The notes below the pieces were generated by a model. It had not been told where the DNA came from. It worked only from the letters and a program-made list of their open reading frames with translations, and made no database searches. A stretch of DNA of 64,000 nt from Alphaproteobacteria bacterium (GTDB taxonomy: Bacteria > Pseudomonadota > Alphaproteobacteria > MPNO01 > UBA830): positions 1,995,529 to 2,059,528 of the forward strand of contig OZ244893.1 in assembly GCA_965221485.1 (NCBI GenBank). Direction: 5' to 3'. Made by a program: the position numbers and the translations under genes. Shown piece by piece: positions 49,942 through 55,651 of this stretch (position 1 is the first letter of the stretch; each line of letters begins with the position of its first letter).

Positions 49942-50772
49942 TCACAATCCTGTCAGGGCGGTATCCATGGCGGCACCGGTCAACACCGCCTGCGCCGCCG
50001 GCGAGAAACCTCCGTCGGGATGATGAAGCGTCAAACCTGCGGTGAGACTGAGCGGCGTCCGGGCACCCTTGCGGGCTCGCAGGATTACACGCTTTGCAGC
50101 CACACCGGGCTTGGGCCACAGGGGAATAATGACAATGCCACCCACCCGGCCCTTGAGCAGTGACAGGATCCGGTCCAACCTGTCTGCACGATGAACCAGC
50201 GTGACATGGGCGCCATGCCGCGCCGTCTGCAACATGAATTCGAGCCACGCTTCAAGGGTCGTGCATCCTTCAGCGCGTGAGATCCGCTCTGGCCCGTCAA
50301 CCGGCAGGCAATCCCGCTTCGGATCCAGATACGGAGGATTGGCCATAACATGATCGAAGCGACCTGCCAGGTCCGCAGGCACAACCTGCATGATATCTCC
50401 GCATCTGATCGCAACCCGATCTGCCAACGCATTCAATCGCGCGTTTTCATTTGCCAACCGGACCAGATGCGGCTGCAGTTCAACCCCGCAAATCGTGCAG
50501 CCCGGCACGCGCCGGGCGAGGCACAGCGCGGCCGTGCCGTGCCCGGCTCCCACATCAAGGATGTTCTCGCCCGGGCGAGCCGTGACCGCAGCAGCGAGGC
50601 AGATCGGGTCAATCGCTGCCCGATATCCGGAAACAGGCTGGCGCAAGACAAGCTGACCACCCAGAAATCTGTCTTCGGTGAGCGGGAATGCAGACGCGGT
50701 CCCGGGATCAGGCAAGCCGACTTCCCTCGCCGGCATCCTCAAGCAGGCGTCGCGCTTGCTCATAATCCTCAT
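49942..50772 (-). CDS. SAM-dependent N6-adenine / N5-glutamine-type methyltransferase (NPPY motif; tRNA m6A37 TrmN6/YfiC-like)
   Basis: SAM-binding motif ILDVGAGHGTAAL and the NPPY catalytic motif. The start may be an internal Met (50736). Confidence 0.7.
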   Translation of the reverse strand: MRIMSKRDACLRMPAREVGLPDPGTASAFPLTEDRFLGGQLVLRQPVSGYRAAIDPICLAAAVTARPGENILDVGAGHGTAALCLARRVPGCTICGVELQPHLVRLANENARLNALADRVAIRCGDIMQVVPADLAGRFDHVMANPPYLDPKRDCLPVDGPERISRAEGCTTLEAWLEFMLQTARHGAHVTLVHRADRLDRILSLLKGRVGGIVIIPLWPKPGVAAKRVILRARKGARTPLSLTAGLTLHHPDGGFSPAAQAVLTGAAMDTALTGL

Positions 50773-51003: not shown

Positions 51004-52026
51004 ATGAGCGTCGTTATCGACTTGGACCGCGAACGCCGGGATCGGCCCCAGCCCAGCCTCAACACTCTGGCAGCGCTTACCACCGATGACATGACGCAGG
51101 TGAATCAGACCATCGTTGACCGGATGGACAGTCCGGTGATTCTCATTCCCCAGGTCGCCCGTCACATTACGGCAGCGGGCGGCAAACGATTGCGCCCGAT
51201 GCTGACACTGGCAAGTTCCCGGCTTTGCGGATATCAGGGCACGCGGCATATCAGTCTCGCTGCCTGTGTCGAATTTATCCACACCGCGACGCTGCTTCAT
51301 GACGATGTCGTCGACGAGAGCAACATGCGCCGTGGCACAGCAAGCGCCAACGCGATCTGGGGCAACAAGTCCAGCGTCCTGGTCGGCGACTTCCTGTTCA
51401 GTCGCGCTTTTGAACTGATGGTGGAAGACGGGGACCTCAAGGTCCTGGAAATCCTTTCAACCGCTTCATCGGTCATTGCGGAAGGCGAAGTCCTGCAGCT
51501 TGTCATCGCCAACGACACGGAAACGACCGAAGCCGATTACCTGGAAGTTGTCCGGTGCAAGACTGCCAGGCTGTTCGCGGCCGCTTGCGAAATTGGAGCG
51601 GTGATATCCGGGAGCCCGGAACGGGAACGCAACGCGCTTCGCGCCTTTGGACACAATCTGGGAATGGCATTTCAGCTGGTCGACGATGTCCTCGACTATT
51701 CGGCCAAGCAAGCCGCCCTCGGCAAGACTGTGGGGGACGACTTTCGGGAGGGAAAGATCACGCTCCCCATTGTTCTGGCCTTTCAGTCGGCAGATGAGGA
51801 AGGCCGGAAGTTCTGGCGACGGACGCTCGAGGAACTCGAACAGAAGAAAAGCGATATTCGTCGAGCCGTCAAGATGCTGGAACAATCAGGAGCCCTGGCG
51901 GCCACCATGAACAGGGCCCGCGAGTATGCGATCAAGGCCCAGTCCGAACTTGAAGAGTTTCCTTCGAATCAGTTCAAGGCCGCACTCATGGAAGCTGTAT
52001 CATTCACGGTCAGCCGATCCTGCTAG
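51004..52026 (+). CDS. ispB: Polyprenyl diphosphate synthase (octaprenyl-diphosphate synthase-like)
   Basis: First and second aspartate-rich motifs (LLHDDVVDES and FQLVDDVLD). Length is 340 aa. Confidence 0.85.
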   Translation: MSVVIDLDRERRDRPQPSLNTLAALTTDDMTQVNQTIVDRMDSPVILIPQVARHITAAGGKRLRPMLTLASSRLCGYQGTRHISLAACVEFIHTATLLHDDVVDESNMRRGTASANAIWGNKSSVLVGDFLFSRAFELMVEDGDLKVLEILSTASSVIAEGEVLQLVIANDTETTEADYLEVVRCKTARLFAAACEIGAVISGSPERERNALRAFGHNLGMAFQLVDDVLDYSAKQAALGKTVGDDFREGKITLPIVLAFQSADEEGRKFWRRTLEELEQKKSDIRRAVKMLEQSGALAATMNRAREYAIKAQSELEEFPSNQFKAALMEAVSFTVSRSC

Positions 52027-52738
52027 AACGGCACTTGCTTCGGTGGTGACGGACAGCTTCACCGCGACGCGCCCCACATTTGCCTTTCAATCATGGCTCA
52101 GGCTGTCCCGCATTCAATGATCAATTCCCGGAATTCGGTCAAAGAAGCACAGCCAACAGTCCTCCATCGAGCGTCCTGTCTTCTCTCGACAGCAGTCTCT
52201 TGAAGCCACTGTCGCCCAGGGTCAAGCTCGCTCTCGCTGTCTTTACCCTCGGCCCTTTTCGTGGCAAGCCGTGATACGGGCCTGAGCTGGTCGTGCTCCG
52301 ACGGCAGCGTTCTGCAAGAAATCGGGGGCGGGATAAACTGTCGGCGACGAACACGCCATTACAACGCGGGCCCAACGGCACAAAATGCCCGACGTTGTGG
52401 GATGTTCTCCAAAGGCGCCGGCAATCTGGCGCCGACACGGCACCTGCAATATCATTACATTCAAAAGCATTACGGACGGTCGCGAGTGCGGATCGCAAGA
52501 CACTTGATACCTTACGGGGGCCGGCATCCTTCTCCTGACGGTATCGGTCTGGCTGGGCCTCGTGCCTGCCCACCAGGTTCGCTGCCTTGTGCAGGTTCAC
52601 TTGTCTCGCACGTGGAGTTCCGCTCCGGAGTTTCGTCGATCATGAAATCGACGGCTTATGATGCAAGCTCCCGGGCTTCGGACAGGCCCGACATCCGCAT
52701 CAGGGGATCCCGTTCAGTATCCGTCATCGCGACACCCC

Positions 52739-53659
52739 CTACCCCAGGAAACACTTCTCGTTGTGCCAGGCCAGGACATCGGGATCGGGCCGGCGTGAGG
52801 CGTCCTCGGGCACGCTGATGCGGTGACCATGGAGCGCGTAATAATGCCGGCCGTTTTCGAACTCCTCCCTGATCCTGCGGCTGACCTCGAAGTCCAGACT
52901 CGGCGTCACCGTCACATAGCCGGCATCGAACAGGCTGTGGATGTCGCGTCTGAGCAGAAGCCCGTTTTGCTCATCATGGGCGCCGCCGTCCCCATAGGGC
53001 CGGATATGCGCCGCTTCCAGCGCCGGCAGCGTCCGTTCCTCGGTCACCGCGCAGCGACGGCTATAGATGTCGGTCACCATGACACGGAAGGCGCCTTGCC
53101 CGAGACGTGGCGGGATGAGATACGGTTCACCGAATCGCGCCCGTTCCTCCGCCATACCAGGGATTGGACGCCGGCTCAGGCGTTCGTTGACCCTCTCCCA
53201 CAGGGCCAGGCCTTCGGAGTCGCCCGTATTGTAGGTCTTGAACCGGACAATGTTCGGCGACCAGCTTTTCGGCGCAGGGATCCAGTCGGCCTCGTCGAAA
53301 AAGAACGGCTGGGTCAGGATACGGCAGCCAATGTCAAAATCGCGGCGGTCGTCGGGATTGACCCTTCTGTACTTGGCGATGTGCGCGCGCATTTCCCCGG
53401 CGGACCGCGCACCGTTGGCCTCACCAAACGCTTCCCAGGCCAGCGAGCACGGCAGTGCATTGGCATAGGCAAAAATCCCCCCTCCGACGATAAAGTTGCG
53501 CGGCGAGCGCAGCTTGAACAGGAATATTTCACCCCGCTGGAGCGCCCCGAAATTCCCCGCCGAGGGCGACCAGAAATTGACCTCGCCAAGGTCCGGCTGG
53601 CGTCGCAGCATCTCGAACCAGTCTCCGTCGGTGACGGCGACAACAAGGTTGATGCCCAT
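52739..53659 (-). CDS. PUA/EVE-like N-terminal domain fused to a C-terminal HNH nuclease (COG3440-type putative modification-dependent restriction endonuclease)
   Basis: The C-terminal HNH motif is TLPALEAAHIRPYGDGGAHDEQNGLLLRRDIHSLFDAGYV. The N-terminal ~150 aa show an EVE/PUA beta-barrel-like pattern (WFEMLRRQ...VNFWSP...GEIFLFKLRSP...IVGGGIFAYAN). Confidence 0.6.
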   Translation of the reverse strand: MGINLVVAVTDGDWFEMLRRQPDLGEVNFWSPSAGNFGALQRGEIFLFKLRSPRNFIVGGGIFAYANALPCSLAWEAFGEANGARSAGEMRAHIAKYRRVNPDDRRDFDIGCRILTQPFFFDEADWIPAPKSWSPNIVRFKTYNTGDSEGLALWERVNERLSRRPIPGMAEERARFGEPYLIPPRLGQGAFRVMVTDIYSRRCAVTEERTLPALEAAHIRPYGDGGAHDEQNGLLLRRDIHSLFDAGYVTVTPSLDFEVSRRIREEFENGRHYYALHGHRISVPEDASRRPDPDVLAWHNEKCFLG

Positions 53660-53748
53660 GGCCAGTTGCCCCCTTTATTCCTGCCTAGAGATTACGATCC
53701 GCAGCGACGCATTTGCCAGGATTGTCGTCGAGGAAATATACCAGATCC

Positions 53749-54516
53749 TCAGGCAGGAGCCTGGAGCTCATATCGGATCGCCTCTTCGATTTCCACAGGA
53801 TTGCGTTCGTAGTCCTGCACCAGATCACTGACAGATTCACCGGCCCTGTAGCGCTCCGCGATCACTTCTGTTGCCAGTCCGGTACCGGCAATCACGGGGC
53901 GTCCAGCGGAGAGAGTGGGGTCAATGACCACGAGCGCCGGATCGTCTTTCAGCGCGGAGCGCGTATACGGATAGAGTCTGATGGGTACGCCATTGCTGTC
54001 ACGTTCTATTCGCCTCAAGGCCGCACTGATGATCTCCCGCATCGCCATCTGTCCTTCCCGGCCGATATTGACGAGCTCGTCATATTGCTGAATCAACAGG
54101 TCCAGACCATTCGCTGCCAGTTCACGGCTGATCAGCGGATGCAGTTCATCCCCTGGATGTTTCGCGCATGTGCCGAGGAACCGGATCGCTTTTCGTACCT
54201 TTGCCATCCTGATCCGATGGTCTCTCCGGATGGCGGCAAGCACATGAAGCTCCACCAGATTCAGAAAGGAAAGCCGTGTCGGAGATTTCGCGGGCACCGT
54301 GATCAGCGGCCCATGGCTGGCACGACCCATCGACCAGTATCGAACAGTTGCCGCTGGCAGAGACAGGTATTGAGCCGCCTCTGAAACTGTATAGGCCGGG
54401 AGTTCGCGCGGATCCCGGGTCTGGTTCGGGCTTTTTGTCACGATGAGGCGTCTCCCCATCCTGATTCCCGTTTCAGGAACACAACGATTAACACGATCGG
54501 GTTTTGTACTCCACAC
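53749..54516 (-). CDS. HTH (MerR/excisionase-like) + DUF433 domain protein
   Basis: The N-terminus YTVSEAAQYLSLPAATVRYW is an HTH. The C-terminus GRPVIAGTGLATEVIAERYRAGESVSDLVQDYERNPVEIEEAIRYE matches the DUF433 pattern. It is 90 bp upstream of the EVE-HNH gene on the same strand. The start could be the internal ATG at ~54459. Confidence 0.55.
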   Translation of the reverse strand: MWSTKPDRVNRCVPETGIRMGRRLIVTKSPNQTRDPRELPAYTVSEAAQYLSLPAATVRYWSMGRASHGPLITVPAKSPTRLSFLNLVELHVLAAIRRDHRIRMAKVRKAIRFLGTCAKHPGDELHPLISRELAANGLDLLIQQYDELVNIGREGQMAMREIISAALRRIERDSNGVPIRLYPYTRSALKDDPALVVIDPTLSAGRPVIAGTGLATEVIAERYRAGESVSDLVQDYERNPVEIEEAIRYELQAPA

Positions 54517-55279
54517 AGCAGAATTGCAGGGTGCCAGGAACGCAGCAGGGGCGTCAGGCCTCGGAGAGCCTTGGGCCGGAAATGATCTCGATCAGGAACT
54601 TCTCGCTGCGGGGCAAACGAACAAGGGGATATTCCGCAAGCTGAGGATGAAACCTGAAGGCCGTACGCTACCGGTTCCCGTCCGTTATCGAGACATCGTG
54701 CGCGAATTTGGGGCAGGTCCTGATCTCGACTGCAACATGACGTCCAGACAAAAGAAAACCTGTGAGGAAAAATGTGCAAAATTCAGGCCACAACAACCTG
54801 ATGCAGGACTGAAATCAGCACCTGGGTGCCTACAGACCGCGAGGGAAACCATCTCTTGGGTGGCGACCGTTTACGAACTGGCAGCCAACCCGGCGCCTTC
54901 TTGGTGAGGTCAGCTTGCGCAAACACCGTGCCATGCCCACCTTCTCGGTCCGTGATATAGGAAGACTCCAGATCGCGTTGGTAGTTTTGCGGATTGTCTT
55001 CCCGAACAACATGATGATCTGGGCAATTGGTCAGCAGGACCTTCATCACATTGTGAGCCTTTTCGAACGGTTTGACAGCCGCACAAGGTTCCCCGATCAC
55101 CGTCCCCGCACCGCCAGGCTCACGGCAGCGACGGGTGGTCCATCTTCGCTACCAGGCAGCCCGCACCAGATCAGCTATTACCGTCCGCCATTCGGGCCTG
55201 GGTATCATGGCCCGTCGCCGGGCCCGGCGCTGGACCATCTGGCGAACCTGCAGTGAGGTCGTGCTTCGTCAGGACATCG

Positions 55280-55651
55280 TCATCCGGCTGCATCGGACGG
55301 TTGATGAATTTCCACGATCCGATCCGGCGAAACATGCACGCCGTAGGTCTTCAGGGGCTGGTCTCCTGTCACGCGGAAGCCGTGGACACGGCCGGCGGGA
55401 AACACCAGTGTCATCTCGGGCGCAAGGTCGATCCTGTCGTCATGACCCTCCATCCACGCTTCGCCATGTCCTTCCAGTACGGTCAGAATTTCCATGTAGG
55501 GGTGGGAATGATCCGGCGTTTCATATCCCGGCGGCGAGGTTTGAATCCCGCACCGCACCGGGGTCGAGCCGACACCATCCCCCACCAGCGTCTGATAGAA
55601 CGCGCCGCCGGGAAACGGTTCCTTTTCGACATCCGGATGACGAATGATCAT
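55280..55651 (-). CDS. Cupin-domain protein
   Basis: Cupin motifs PDHSHPYMEILTVLEGHGE and FPAGRVHGF. The start is the ATG at 55651 (MIIRHPDVEK). Confidence 0.65.
   Translation of the reverse strand: MIIRHPDVEKEPFPGGAFYQTLVGDGVGSTPVRCGIQTSPPGYETPDHSHPYMEILTVLEGHGEAWMEGHDDRIDLAPEMTLVFPAGRVHGFRVTGDQPLKTYGVHVSPDRIVEIHQPSDAAG

Follow-up and report, generated by a model that had tools for sequence, protein, structure and literature searches.

An HNH_2 nuclease gene beside an orphan VapB45-like antitoxin gene: a probable composite of two unrelated mobile modules

Results

Gene content of the locus

The locus is part of a 64,000-nucleotide stretch of alphaproteobacterial DNA, hereafter called the window. 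By ORF calling, two genes were found on the minus strand: a nuclease gene at 52739-53659 (306 aa), here termed HNH-A, and an HTH-DUF433 ORF at 53749-54516, which encodes 255 aa if counted from a GTG codon. The gap between them is 89 nt, in agreement with the preliminary description of two same-strand genes about 90 bp apart. On either side lies a gap of 0.7-0.8 kb, and these gaps are unusual because the rest of the 64-kb window is densely coding. The following features were delineated:

52027..52687, no strand: non-coding stretch between the convergent ispB gene and the HNH cassette
52688..52727, minus strand: HNH-B relic, ~13 initial codons of another HNH_2 gene; ATG 11 nt past the HNH-A stop, residual ORF to a TAA at 52656
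52739..53164, minus strand: linker and C-terminal HNH_2 domain of HNH-A (aa 166-306) and stop; Pfam core aa 203-251 at 52907-53053
53165..53659, minus strand: N-terminal PUA-superfamily (ASCH/EVE-like) domain of HNH-A (aa 1-165), putative modified-base sensor
53660..53672, minus strand: 5' boundary of the acquired segment, with PIN_10 homology up to ~53672 and homology to HNH loci from 53667
53670..53807, minus strand: toxin-gene relic of PIN_10 (VapC45-like) type, spanning codons ~2-47; in-frame TAG at 53685-53687, overlap with the antitoxin gene at that gene's 3' end
53749..54459, minus strand: VapB45-like antitoxin gene (HTH_66 + DUF433), 236 aa, intact; extendable to the GTG at 54516
54460..55279, no strand: 820-bp stretch 5' of the antitoxin gene, presumed site of the toxin-antitoxin (TA) promoter

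The flanks had been described as free of convincing ORFs. No ORF in 52027-52738 or in 54460/54517-55279 had a Pfam match, and neither flank contained an Rfam match, a tRNA, a dispersed repeat, attachment-site-like repeats or a tRNA target. This part of the description thus stands, except that the first ~50 nt past the HNH-A stop belong to the HNH-B relic. The codon-phase GC content is flat in 52027-52738, whereas neighbouring genes differ by 0.2-0.4 between phases; in 54460-55279 a weak codon-phase signal was seen at 54880-55060 only. The ORF at 54783-55100 had no family match in a protein-level search. The flanks showed no similarity to any of the fetched loci (tblastx, blastn), to plasmid DNA or to the genes neighbouring DUF433 in relatives. 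A promoter scan found no sigma-70 consensus, and a palindrome (I8) is located at 55207-55238, just downstream of the cupin gene.

A VapB45-like antitoxin gene with a truncated toxin gene

In the 255-aa ORF, DUF433 (aa 196-249, E 9e-11) and HTH_66 (aa 40-111, E 6e-6) were both identified above the Pfam cut-offs, and the HTH_17 and MerR matches in the same search were sub-threshold. We place the start at the ATG at 54459, which yields 236 aa, because the family length is ~230 aa and an identical 236-aa protein is present in the database (P0241). The original assignment as an HTH-DUF433 protein is retained, with a length of 236 rather than 255 aa. The protein matches PDB 5af3 over its full length (aa 38-247, E 2.6e-12), which is VapB45/Rv2018 of M. 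tuberculosis (PMC5499597), and is ~65-70% identical to homologues of ~230 aa. PIN_10-DUF433 has been defined as a TA family (PMC5499597), and Rv2019/Rv2018 has been shown experimentally to be an RNase toxin/antitoxin pair (PMC5175181).

The similarity to VapBC45 (Rv2018 antitoxin, Rv2019 PIN_10 RNase toxin) extends from the HTH_66 + DUF433 layout and full-length homology to the gene order: here, as in intact relatives, the toxin start lies within the last part of the antitoxin gene. A PIN_10 gene follows the DUF433 gene in all ten loci from relatives, intact in seven and truncated in three; the metagenome scan for DUF433 yielded one locus. Unlike in VapBC45, the toxin gene in the window is cut to ~45 codons with a stop, and the antitoxin is therefore an orphan.

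The toxin relic was recognized by tblastn with the PIN_10 protein of one relative (L081; 45% identity over 49 aa, E 4e-4) and by an HMM of four intact PIN_10 proteins, which matched at positions 2-47 of 149 (E 1.6e-7). Positions 48-149 of the HMM matched nothing anywhere in 51900-55400, and no intact toxin gene is adjacent. A weak tblastn match at 52445-52546 (E 9), considered as the missing 3' part, was not confirmed by the HMM. The 89-nt spacer consists mostly of this relic. In the DNA alignment, PIN_10 homology stops at the sequence GGAAT near 53672, ~10 bp before the HNH-A gene, and in blastn searches against 80 HNH loci homology begins at 53659-53667. A purine-rich sequence, AAAGGGGG, is present at 53670-53677, 10 nt ahead of the HNH-A ATG. 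The PIN_10 gene of another relative (L084) is interrupted at the same codon as that of the window; its insert was compared with the HNH protein and turned out to be an unrelated ORF.

A relic of a second HNH_2 gene downstream of HNH-A

For 54 nt past the HNH-A stop, the window is 70-78% identical to the closest loci, after which identity falls to ~35%, and blastn homology to many HNH loci stops at 52688. The N-terminus of HNH-B gave weak protein matches at the relic from several independent queries, and the HMM match was weak as well (E 0.7). Intact HNH-B is located 6-15 bp past HNH-A, or overlaps it, in 22 of the 80 loci, and adjoins HNH-A on two of six viral contigs; the remaining 58 loci have no intact adjacent HNH_2 paralogue. 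HNH-B, likewise an HNH_2 nuclease, differs from HNH-A in its N-terminal domain and elsewhere is its usual operon partner on the downstream side. In hhalign comparisons of the two families, the nuclease domains alone align.

Domains of HNH-A and comparison with known enzymes

The C-terminal HNH motif quoted in the preliminary description is present in the 306-aa protein and matches Pfam HNH_2 (aa 203-251, E 9e-13). H218, N232 and H241 are invariant among 70 homologues, and the catalytic residues of HNH-A are intact. In the N-terminal domain, the aromatic residues W14, F29, W30, W75 and F78 are invariant as well. Residues 1-180 had no Pfam match at E<=1, and the N-terminal domain had no sequence-profile match to EVE, ASCH, SRA or YTH. 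HMM searches with Pfam, NCBIfam, PADLOC, PHROGs and PDB sequences returned nothing outside the HNH part, and a profile of the 70 homologues matched PDB sequences through the HNH part only. In the AlphaFold model (pLDDT 88), the N-terminal domain has a PUA-superfamily fold, nearest to ASCH, then EVE and YTH, with ZmASCH as its best structural neighbour. Thus, the domain first described as PUA/EVE-like does have the superfamily fold in the model, but it has no sequence-family match and is closer to ASCH than to EVE. Its role as a sensor rests on the predicted fold, since it has no sequence-level match to EVE, ASCH, SRA or YTH.

The best whole-protein matches of HNH-A were the modification-dependent enzymes VcaM4I and TagI, with VcaM4I as the best whole-chain Foldseek match. 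The EVE-HNH type IV enzymes VcaM4I, TspA15I and CmeDI (PDB 6yex) share with HNH-A their length (~306-309 aa) and their layout, in which a PUA-superfamily domain is followed by a linker helix and then by an HNH domain; that of VcaM4I is homologous by sequence to that of HNH-A (profile E 1.5e-11), and both lack an adjacent methyltransferase. Unlike the EVE-HNH subgroup (VcaM4I/TspA15I), HNH-A has no PF01878 match and EVE is not its nearest structural family; unlike the SRA-HNH enzymes TagI and ScoA3IV, it has no SRA match. The HNH_2-type C-terminal domain of the phosphorothioate-dependent enzymes ScoMcrA and SprMcrA (NF045808) also matches HNH-A (E 2e-15), but the alignment covers no more than the C-terminal 115 residues and scores 56.6 bits, far short of the SBD-HNH cut-off of 180. 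No sulfur-binding domain was detected in HNH-A. ScoA3V (Sco5330, NP_629471.1) is a "distantly PUA-like"-HNH protein and a 6mA-stimulated nickase, with close homologues reported in Actinomycetales only (PMC6765204). Judged by this description, the HNH-A family differs in occurring mainly in Proteobacteria, Acidobacteriota and other phyla.

Spread and genomic context of the HNH-A family

The family comprises 627 clusters at 50% identity (E<=1e-30) and more than 8000 close sequences. Protein identity between HNH-A and its close copies is 78-85% over all 306 aa; these copies were found in Alphaproteobacteria, Thermodesulfobacteriota, Binatia, Acidobacteriota, Dehalococcoidia and Gemmatimonadota. 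Comparison of the seven closest copies gave dS values of 0.58-0.88 and dN/dS ratios of 0.13-0.19. The family is thus under purifying selection while crossing phyla. It moves between phyla and is often accompanied by the second HNH_2 nuclease.

No flanking gene is common to the window and any of the 80 HNH loci. The genes directly beside HNH-A in 75 loci included the HNH_2 paralogue (22), GmrSD, Schlafen-type helicases, type I R subunits, integrases and transposases. Plasmid copies adjoin a type ISP RM enzyme and AbiE, or integrases and IS4, and on IMG/VR contigs a family gene is located next to a serine recombinase. No DNA methyltransferase family was among the 25 commonest Pfam families listed for the 150 immediate neighbours of the 75 loci, and the sole methyltransferase near HNH-A in the window is a core MTS-family enzyme beyond ispB. 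The absence of a nearby methyltransferase and a patchy distribution are hallmarks of PUA-superfamily-HNH modification-dependent enzymes (PMC6765204, PMC7897488).

Discussion

Origin of the locus

We consider it probable (about 0.7) that the islet consists of two unrelated mobile modules, one of which has been in part overwritten by the other. The first module would be a VapBC45-type TA locus, with an HTH_66-DUF433 antitoxin gene followed by an overlapping PIN_10 RNase toxin gene. The second would be an imported segment carrying the whole PUA-like (ASCH/EVE-fold)-HNH_2 nuclease gene and the first ~13 codons of HNH-B, which would have taken the place of PIN_10 from ~codon 46 onward. Both relics and both junctions therefore point to a segment of ~980 bp (~52688-53667) that replaced most of the toxin gene. 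What remains would be an antitoxin gene still intact but without its toxin, an inactive stub of the toxin gene and a nuclease gene on its own. That the segment was inserted into the TA locus, and the locus not rearranged in some other way, is deduced from the relics alone. The two genes are adjacent by accident and form no joint system, as the relics reveal directly. Of the acquired defence islet proposed earlier, the import of the nuclease segment is upheld, but the locus is a composite of two unrelated modules and not one system.

Upstream of its start, the HNH-A gene would have carried over just ~8 bp, and nothing resembling a terminator was seen between the two genes; transcription of HNH-A therefore probably begins at the TA promoter. 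This promoter would still be under autoregulation by the orphan VapB45-like HTH protein, but such a regulatory connection would have arisen by chance from the insertion and not by design.

The same strand, the 89-nt spacing and the lack of a terminator-like site, together with the fact that DUF433 proteins are antitoxins, might instead indicate that the two genes function together in defence or in the manner of a TA pair, with the DUF433 protein neutralizing or specifically controlling the nuclease, as had been suggested. This is very improbable and largely refuted by the distribution of the genes. An HTH-DUF433 gene was found within 6 kb of HNH homologues in none of the 80 loci, an HNH gene near none of the ten DUF433 loci and the pairing in none of the six viral loci. 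Elsewhere, the nuclease is solo or accompanied by an HNH_2 paralogue, and the HTH-DUF433 protein is a homologue of VapB45, whose partner is PIN_10. Since the spacer is a PIN_10 pseudogene, the adjacency of the antitoxin and HNH-A genes is secondary. Site-specific insertion of a selfish homing-type endonuclease into PIN_10 would agree with a clean junction that leaves just ~8 bp ahead of the HNH-A gene, with the wide horizontal spread and with the interruption of PIN_10 at the same codon in L084. Yet the insert in that relative is an unrelated ORF, none of the 80 HNH loci contains a PIN_10 fragment, no intron or intein context was seen, and the combination of HNH_2 and a PUA-like domain is an arrangement of restriction enzymes. 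The 3' breakpoint is located inside HNH-B, which favours illegitimate recombination, and we regard homing as scarcely credible.

Two further alternatives concern the activity of HNH-A. The enzyme might work only when paired with HNH-B, as two sensors on a heteromeric nuclease, in which case the copy in the window would be the non-functional leftover of a half-deleted operon. The presence of HNH-B beside HNH-A in 22 of the 80 loci and on two of the six viral contigs is consistent with this idea, as is the dimerization of VcaM4I-type HNH domains (PMC7897488), and the retained start of HNH-B suggests that the pair was imported or once present. It is nevertheless unlikely, given that 58 loci have no intact adjacent paralogue, that HNH-A of the window is full length with all invariant residues, and that dN/dS is 0.13-0.19 against copies from loci both with and without the partner. 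HNH-A could also be an RNA-directed or nucleotide-sensing effector, with an ASCH-like domain that binds modified RNA or a small nucleotide signal and activates the HNH domain. The nearest fold belongs to ZmASCH, an RNase specific for ssRNA; YqfB acts as an N4-acetylcytidine amidohydrolase, and m6-dAMP has been reported to trigger a defence protein with a PUA domain (PMC12871103). This proposal appears quite improbable, as the HNH_2 domain is most similar to those of the DNA-cutting enzymes VcaM4I and TagI, the whole-chain architecture fits them, and RNA-directed activity of PUA-nuclease fusions is without experimental support (PMC7897488).

Predicted function and significance

Judging by its architecture, HNH-A probably restricts foreign DNA that carries modifications, as a type IV (modification-dependent) enzyme. 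The earlier proposal to this effect is supported in that respect, but the sensor domain has no sequence-family match. The PUA-like domain would capture the flipped, modified base in a pocket, and DNA nearby would be cut by the HNH domain, probably acting as a dimer as in VcaM4I; a methyltransferase would not be needed because the host would lack the modification. The ASCH-like fold would be compatible with recognition of 6mA, 4mC/N4-acyl-C or 5mC/5hmC. No ASCH domain has been confirmed by experiment to read DNA modifications (PMC11037411).

The PIN_10 gene is truncated beside intact VapB45-like antitoxin genes in three of ten relatives and in the window, which adds a small datum on the decay of TA loci into orphan antitoxins. 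The locus is also a worked example of how the gene neighbourhood in a single genome can mislead annotation. In databases the HNH-A family is named just "HNH endonuclease", and Pfam does not recognize its sensor domain. Tentatively, and with more doubt than confidence, we suggest that the 306-aa family may be a widespread type IV class whose ASCH-like sensor reads a modification beyond those of the known PUA-HNH enzymes (e.g. 6mA, 4mC or N4-acyl-cytosine), and whose natural form may be two HNH_2 nucleases with different sensors, covering two modifications at once. If true, an ASCH-like domain would for the first time have a DNA-reader role backed by experiment. The family can reasonably be considered a candidate source of a new modification specificity, of value both as a reagent and in understanding phage DNA modifications.

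Gene content of the locus

The locus contains two genes on the same strand; in the direction of transcription, the HTH-DUF433 gene precedes the HNH gene by 89 nt:

52739–53659, minus strand, HNH nuclease gene (HNH-A), ORF of 306 aa
53749–54516, minus strand, HTH-DUF433 gene, ORF of 255 aa counted from GTG

The identical database protein of the HTH-DUF433 gene is 236 aa long and the family length is about 230 aa, suggesting that the true start is most likely the ATG at 54459. Pfam searches identified HNH_2 at aa 203–251 of the nuclease (E 9e-13), and DUF433 at aa 196–249 (E 9e-11) and HTH_66 at aa 40–111 (E 6e-6) of the second protein. Matches of the latter to MerR, HTH_17 and excisionase families were below the threshold and confined to the first helix-turn-helix.

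The rest of the window is tightly packed with genes, with housekeeping genes on one side (PPDK, glyS, glyQ, S49 peptidase, MTS-family methyltransferase, DUF2007 and ispB) and a cupin and a TRAP/TAXI transporter on the opposite side of the islet. In the two flanks, no ORF had a family match, and searches for Rfam families, tRNAs and repeats able to mark an element found none. Codon-phase GC was flat across 52027–52700, as compared to differences of 0.2–0.4 in the neighbouring genes. Both ORFs, their Pfam domains and the ORF-poor flanks were thereby confirmed.

A 105-aa ORF in the upstream flank (54783–55100, minus strand), with a weak codon-phase GC signal (0.28 at 54880–55059) and neither a Pfam nor a plasmid protein match, could be either a small orphan gene or the remains of a decayed one. 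An imperfect 17-nt palindrome at 55207–55238, about 40 bp downstream of the cupin stop codon, may serve the cupin/TRAP operon as its terminator and would part this operon from the antitoxin promoter region. Two genes from the nuclease is a 276-aa methyltransferase (49942–50772, minus strand) with an NPPY motif and a Pfam match to MTS (small-domain methyltransferase). It lies within the housekeeping block (glyQS, S49 peptidase, DUF2007, ispB), with ispB between it and the nuclease, and was not treated as a restriction-modification partner.

The spacer is a toxin pseudogene

The HTH-DUF433 protein matches PDB entry 5af3 over its full length (aa 38–247, E 2.6e-12). This entry is the M. tuberculosis antitoxin VapB45 (Rv2018), which contains DUF433 and is paired with a PIN_10 toxin (PMC5499597); Rv2019 was shown experimentally to be a growth-inhibiting RNase that is neutralised by Rv2018 (PMC5175181). 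In ten fetched loci with DUF433 homologues 48–70% identical to the window protein, the PIN_10 gene always begins within the 3' end of the DUF433 gene. Seven of these loci (L081, L082, L083, L086, L090, L091, L093) have an intact PIN_10 gene, and in the other three it is truncated beside an intact antitoxin:

L084, 3615–4385, PIN_10 truncated at aa 44
L085, 3632–3862, PIN_10 truncated at aa 78
L092, 2611–2961, PIN_10 truncated at aa 117

The HNH gene is absent from all ten loci. Their flanking genes vary, which shows that the DUF433/PIN_10 toxin-antitoxin (TA) module is itself mobile.

In the window, the PIN_10 protein of L081 matches 53792–53646 (45% identity over 49 aa, E 4e-4), and positions 2–47 of an HMM from four intact PIN_10 proteins match at 53807–53670 (E 1.6e-7); positions 48–149 matched nowhere in 51900–55400. 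About 20 of the matched codons extend past the antitoxin stop codon, so the overlapping antitoxin frame does not account for the similarity. The stub includes the conserved FLDxNxGKxVxADR motif (10 of 16 identical) and an in-frame TAG at 53685–53687, and DNA homology to the intact PIN_10 loci ends with ...GGAAT at about 53672. Thus, based on the match, the stop codon and the end of the alignment, we conclude that the presumed 90-bp spacer is a toxin pseudogene. The antitoxin belongs to the VapB45 family, but as a system the TA pair has been lost here.

The PIN_10 break in L084, at codon ~44–45, falls in the same alignment column as the break in the window and is followed by an unrelated 200-aa ORF without a Pfam match. 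The common column could mark a hot spot of recombination or be coincidental.

The nuclease gene lies on an acquired segment

A scan with one genome per species yielded 80 HNH loci. DNA homology of the nuclease to these loci starts at 53659–53667, at most 8 bp upstream of the ATG, and homology to the closest loci stops at 52688, 50 bp past the stop codon. These limits define an acquired segment of ~980 bp (about 52688–53667), which replaced PIN_10 from about codon 46.

In 22 of the 80 loci, the next downstream gene on the same strand is an intact HNH_2 paralogue (HNH-B, ~290–345 aa), which in 19 of the 22 starts 6–15 bp after the HNH-A stop codon or overlaps it:

L001, 6906–7856, HNH-B
L033, 6891–7856, HNH-B
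L044, 6926–7846, HNH-B
19 other loci, HNH-B

In the window, an ATG 11 nt after the HNH-A stop codon is followed by ~13 codons homologous to the start of HNH-B. The 54 nt after the stop codon are 70–78% identical to the nearest loci, about like the gene body, and beyond them identity collapses to ~35%. The protein-level signal of this HNH-B relic is weak (E 0.009–0.7); it is the position and the DNA alignment that make it convincing. The remaining 660 bp down to ispB gave no match in family, fetched-locus and plasmid comparisons. Besides an intact antitoxin gene of the VapB45-like type and a complete gene for the PUA-like-HNH_2 protein, the window thus holds two remnants, the dead stub of PIN_10 and the stub of the partner gene.

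Comparison by hhalign showed that the nuclease domain is the sole part common to HNH-A and HNH-B. The N-domain of HNH-B (~190 aa) matched nothing in Pfam or among PDB sequences and has no relationship to the PUA-like domain that HNH-A carries. Elsewhere, the place of HNH-B is taken by a 289-aa protein (L012, 6925–7791; L013; L015), whose sole NCBIfam match, a weak one, is to an unknown domain found in a MobB fusion, or by a 750-aa Schlafen-group-3/DUF2075-type helicase (L043, 6918–9167; L060, 949–3204).

Distribution, neighbours and selection

The nuclease has more than 8000 matches among database proteins, and the best 120 of these are 77–85% identical and nearly all exactly 306 aa long. The 80 loci, many in chromosome-level MAGs, are from Alphaproteobacteria, Thermodesulfobacteriota, Binatia, Acidobacteriota, Nitrospinaceae, Dehalococcoidia, Gemmatimonadota, Verrucomicrobiota, Spirochaetales and others. 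The window has no flanking gene in common with any of them, which, together with the spread over phyla, supports the proposal of a horizontally acquired islet.

Among 150 immediate neighbours at 75 loci, HNH_2 (22) was the sole recurrent family, followed by GmrSD (3) and by Schlafen-type helicase, type I R-subunit domains, integrase, transposase and Fic (two each). The 25 commonest neighbour families listed included no DNA-methyltransferase family, DUF433 or PIN_10, and tblastn detected neither DUF433 nor PIN_10 in any of the 80 loci. Plasmid copies adjoin a type ISP RM enzyme and the toxin AbiE in Mesorhizobium, and lie among integrases and IS4 in Deinococcus. The nuclease gene was also found on six IMG/VR contigs, two of which carry HNH-B:

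L096, 39–6860, HNH-A/HNH-B pair on a predicted viral/proviral contig
L094, 5001–6855, HNH-A/HNH-B pair on a predicted viral/proviral contig

On L096, the pair comes after a large serine recombinase, an AAA ATPase and an S8 subtilase, an arrangement resembling defence cargo of an integrative element. Comparison of the window copy with its seven closest counterparts analysed, all from other lineages, gave dS of 0.58–0.88 and dN/dS of 0.13–0.19, indicating a transfer far more recent than the phyla and subsequent purifying selection. Such features, among them the lack of a nearby methyltransferase and a patchy distribution, are the hallmarks from which the literature argues that PUA-superfamily-nuclease fusions are modification-dependent (PMC6765204, PMC7897488).

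Fold and putative function of the nuclease

An AlphaFold2 model from 70 homologues was confident (pLDDT 88, pTM 0.79). Foldseek against the PDB placed VcaM4I (EVE-HNH, E 3e-9) and TagI (SRA-HNH) on top for the whole chain, with ASCH proteins next for the N-terminal half; no sequence method tried gave a match for the N-domain. The model thus predicts a PUA-superfamily fold closer to ASCH than to EVE, so that the PUA assignment stands, whereas EVE as the nearest family and a sequence match do not. H218, N232 and H241 of the HNH domain and the N-domain aromatics W14, F29, W75 and F78 are invariant among the 70 homologues, and W30 is present in at least 90% of them. By architecture the nuclease groups with the PUA-superfamily-HNH type IV enzymes, and it would work like them; by the tests run it falls outside the EVE-HNH subgroup.

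The predicted fold and the context support the earlier idea of a type IV restriction enzyme, to which we assign a probability of about 0.6. The N-domain would probably flip and check a modified base and the HNH domain would cut the DNA nearby; a methyltransferase is not needed in a host without the mark. The role of ASCH domains as DNA readers is so far a prediction (PMC11037411), and an RNA- or nucleotide-sensing role, with which the ASCH-like predicted fold is consistent, is a conceivable alternative.

The HTH-DUF433 protein had also been taken for a controller or antitoxin of the nuclease. Such a DUF433-HNH system is contradicted by the absence of co-occurrence in 96 loci (80 HNH, 10 DUF433 and 6 IMG/VR) and by the PIN_10 pseudogene in the spacer; there is no evolutionary linkage of the antitoxin with the nuclease. 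A homing endonuclease is unlikely, as none of the 80 HNH loci contains PIN_10 sequence and the 3' breakpoint falls inside another gene. It is possible that HNH-A and HNH-B form an obligate pair, of which the window copy would be a dead remnant, but most loci are without an intact adjacent paralogue and selection on the nuclease is purifying.

The nuclease gene has almost no upstream sequence of its own and lies behind the antitoxin gene with no terminator-like site in between, suggesting that it is probably transcribed from the TA promoter; a search for a promoter consensus in the upstream region found none. There is perhaps an even chance that the nuclease gene is read from this promoter, to which the orphan antitoxin would still bind; such control would be a by-product of where the segment landed.

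The islet thus consists of a PUA-like-HNH_2 nuclease gene inside a TA locus that has decayed. As a lead, the ASCH-like-HNH family, very large and unnamed, is the most useful, along with the two-nuclease cassette that it frequently forms.
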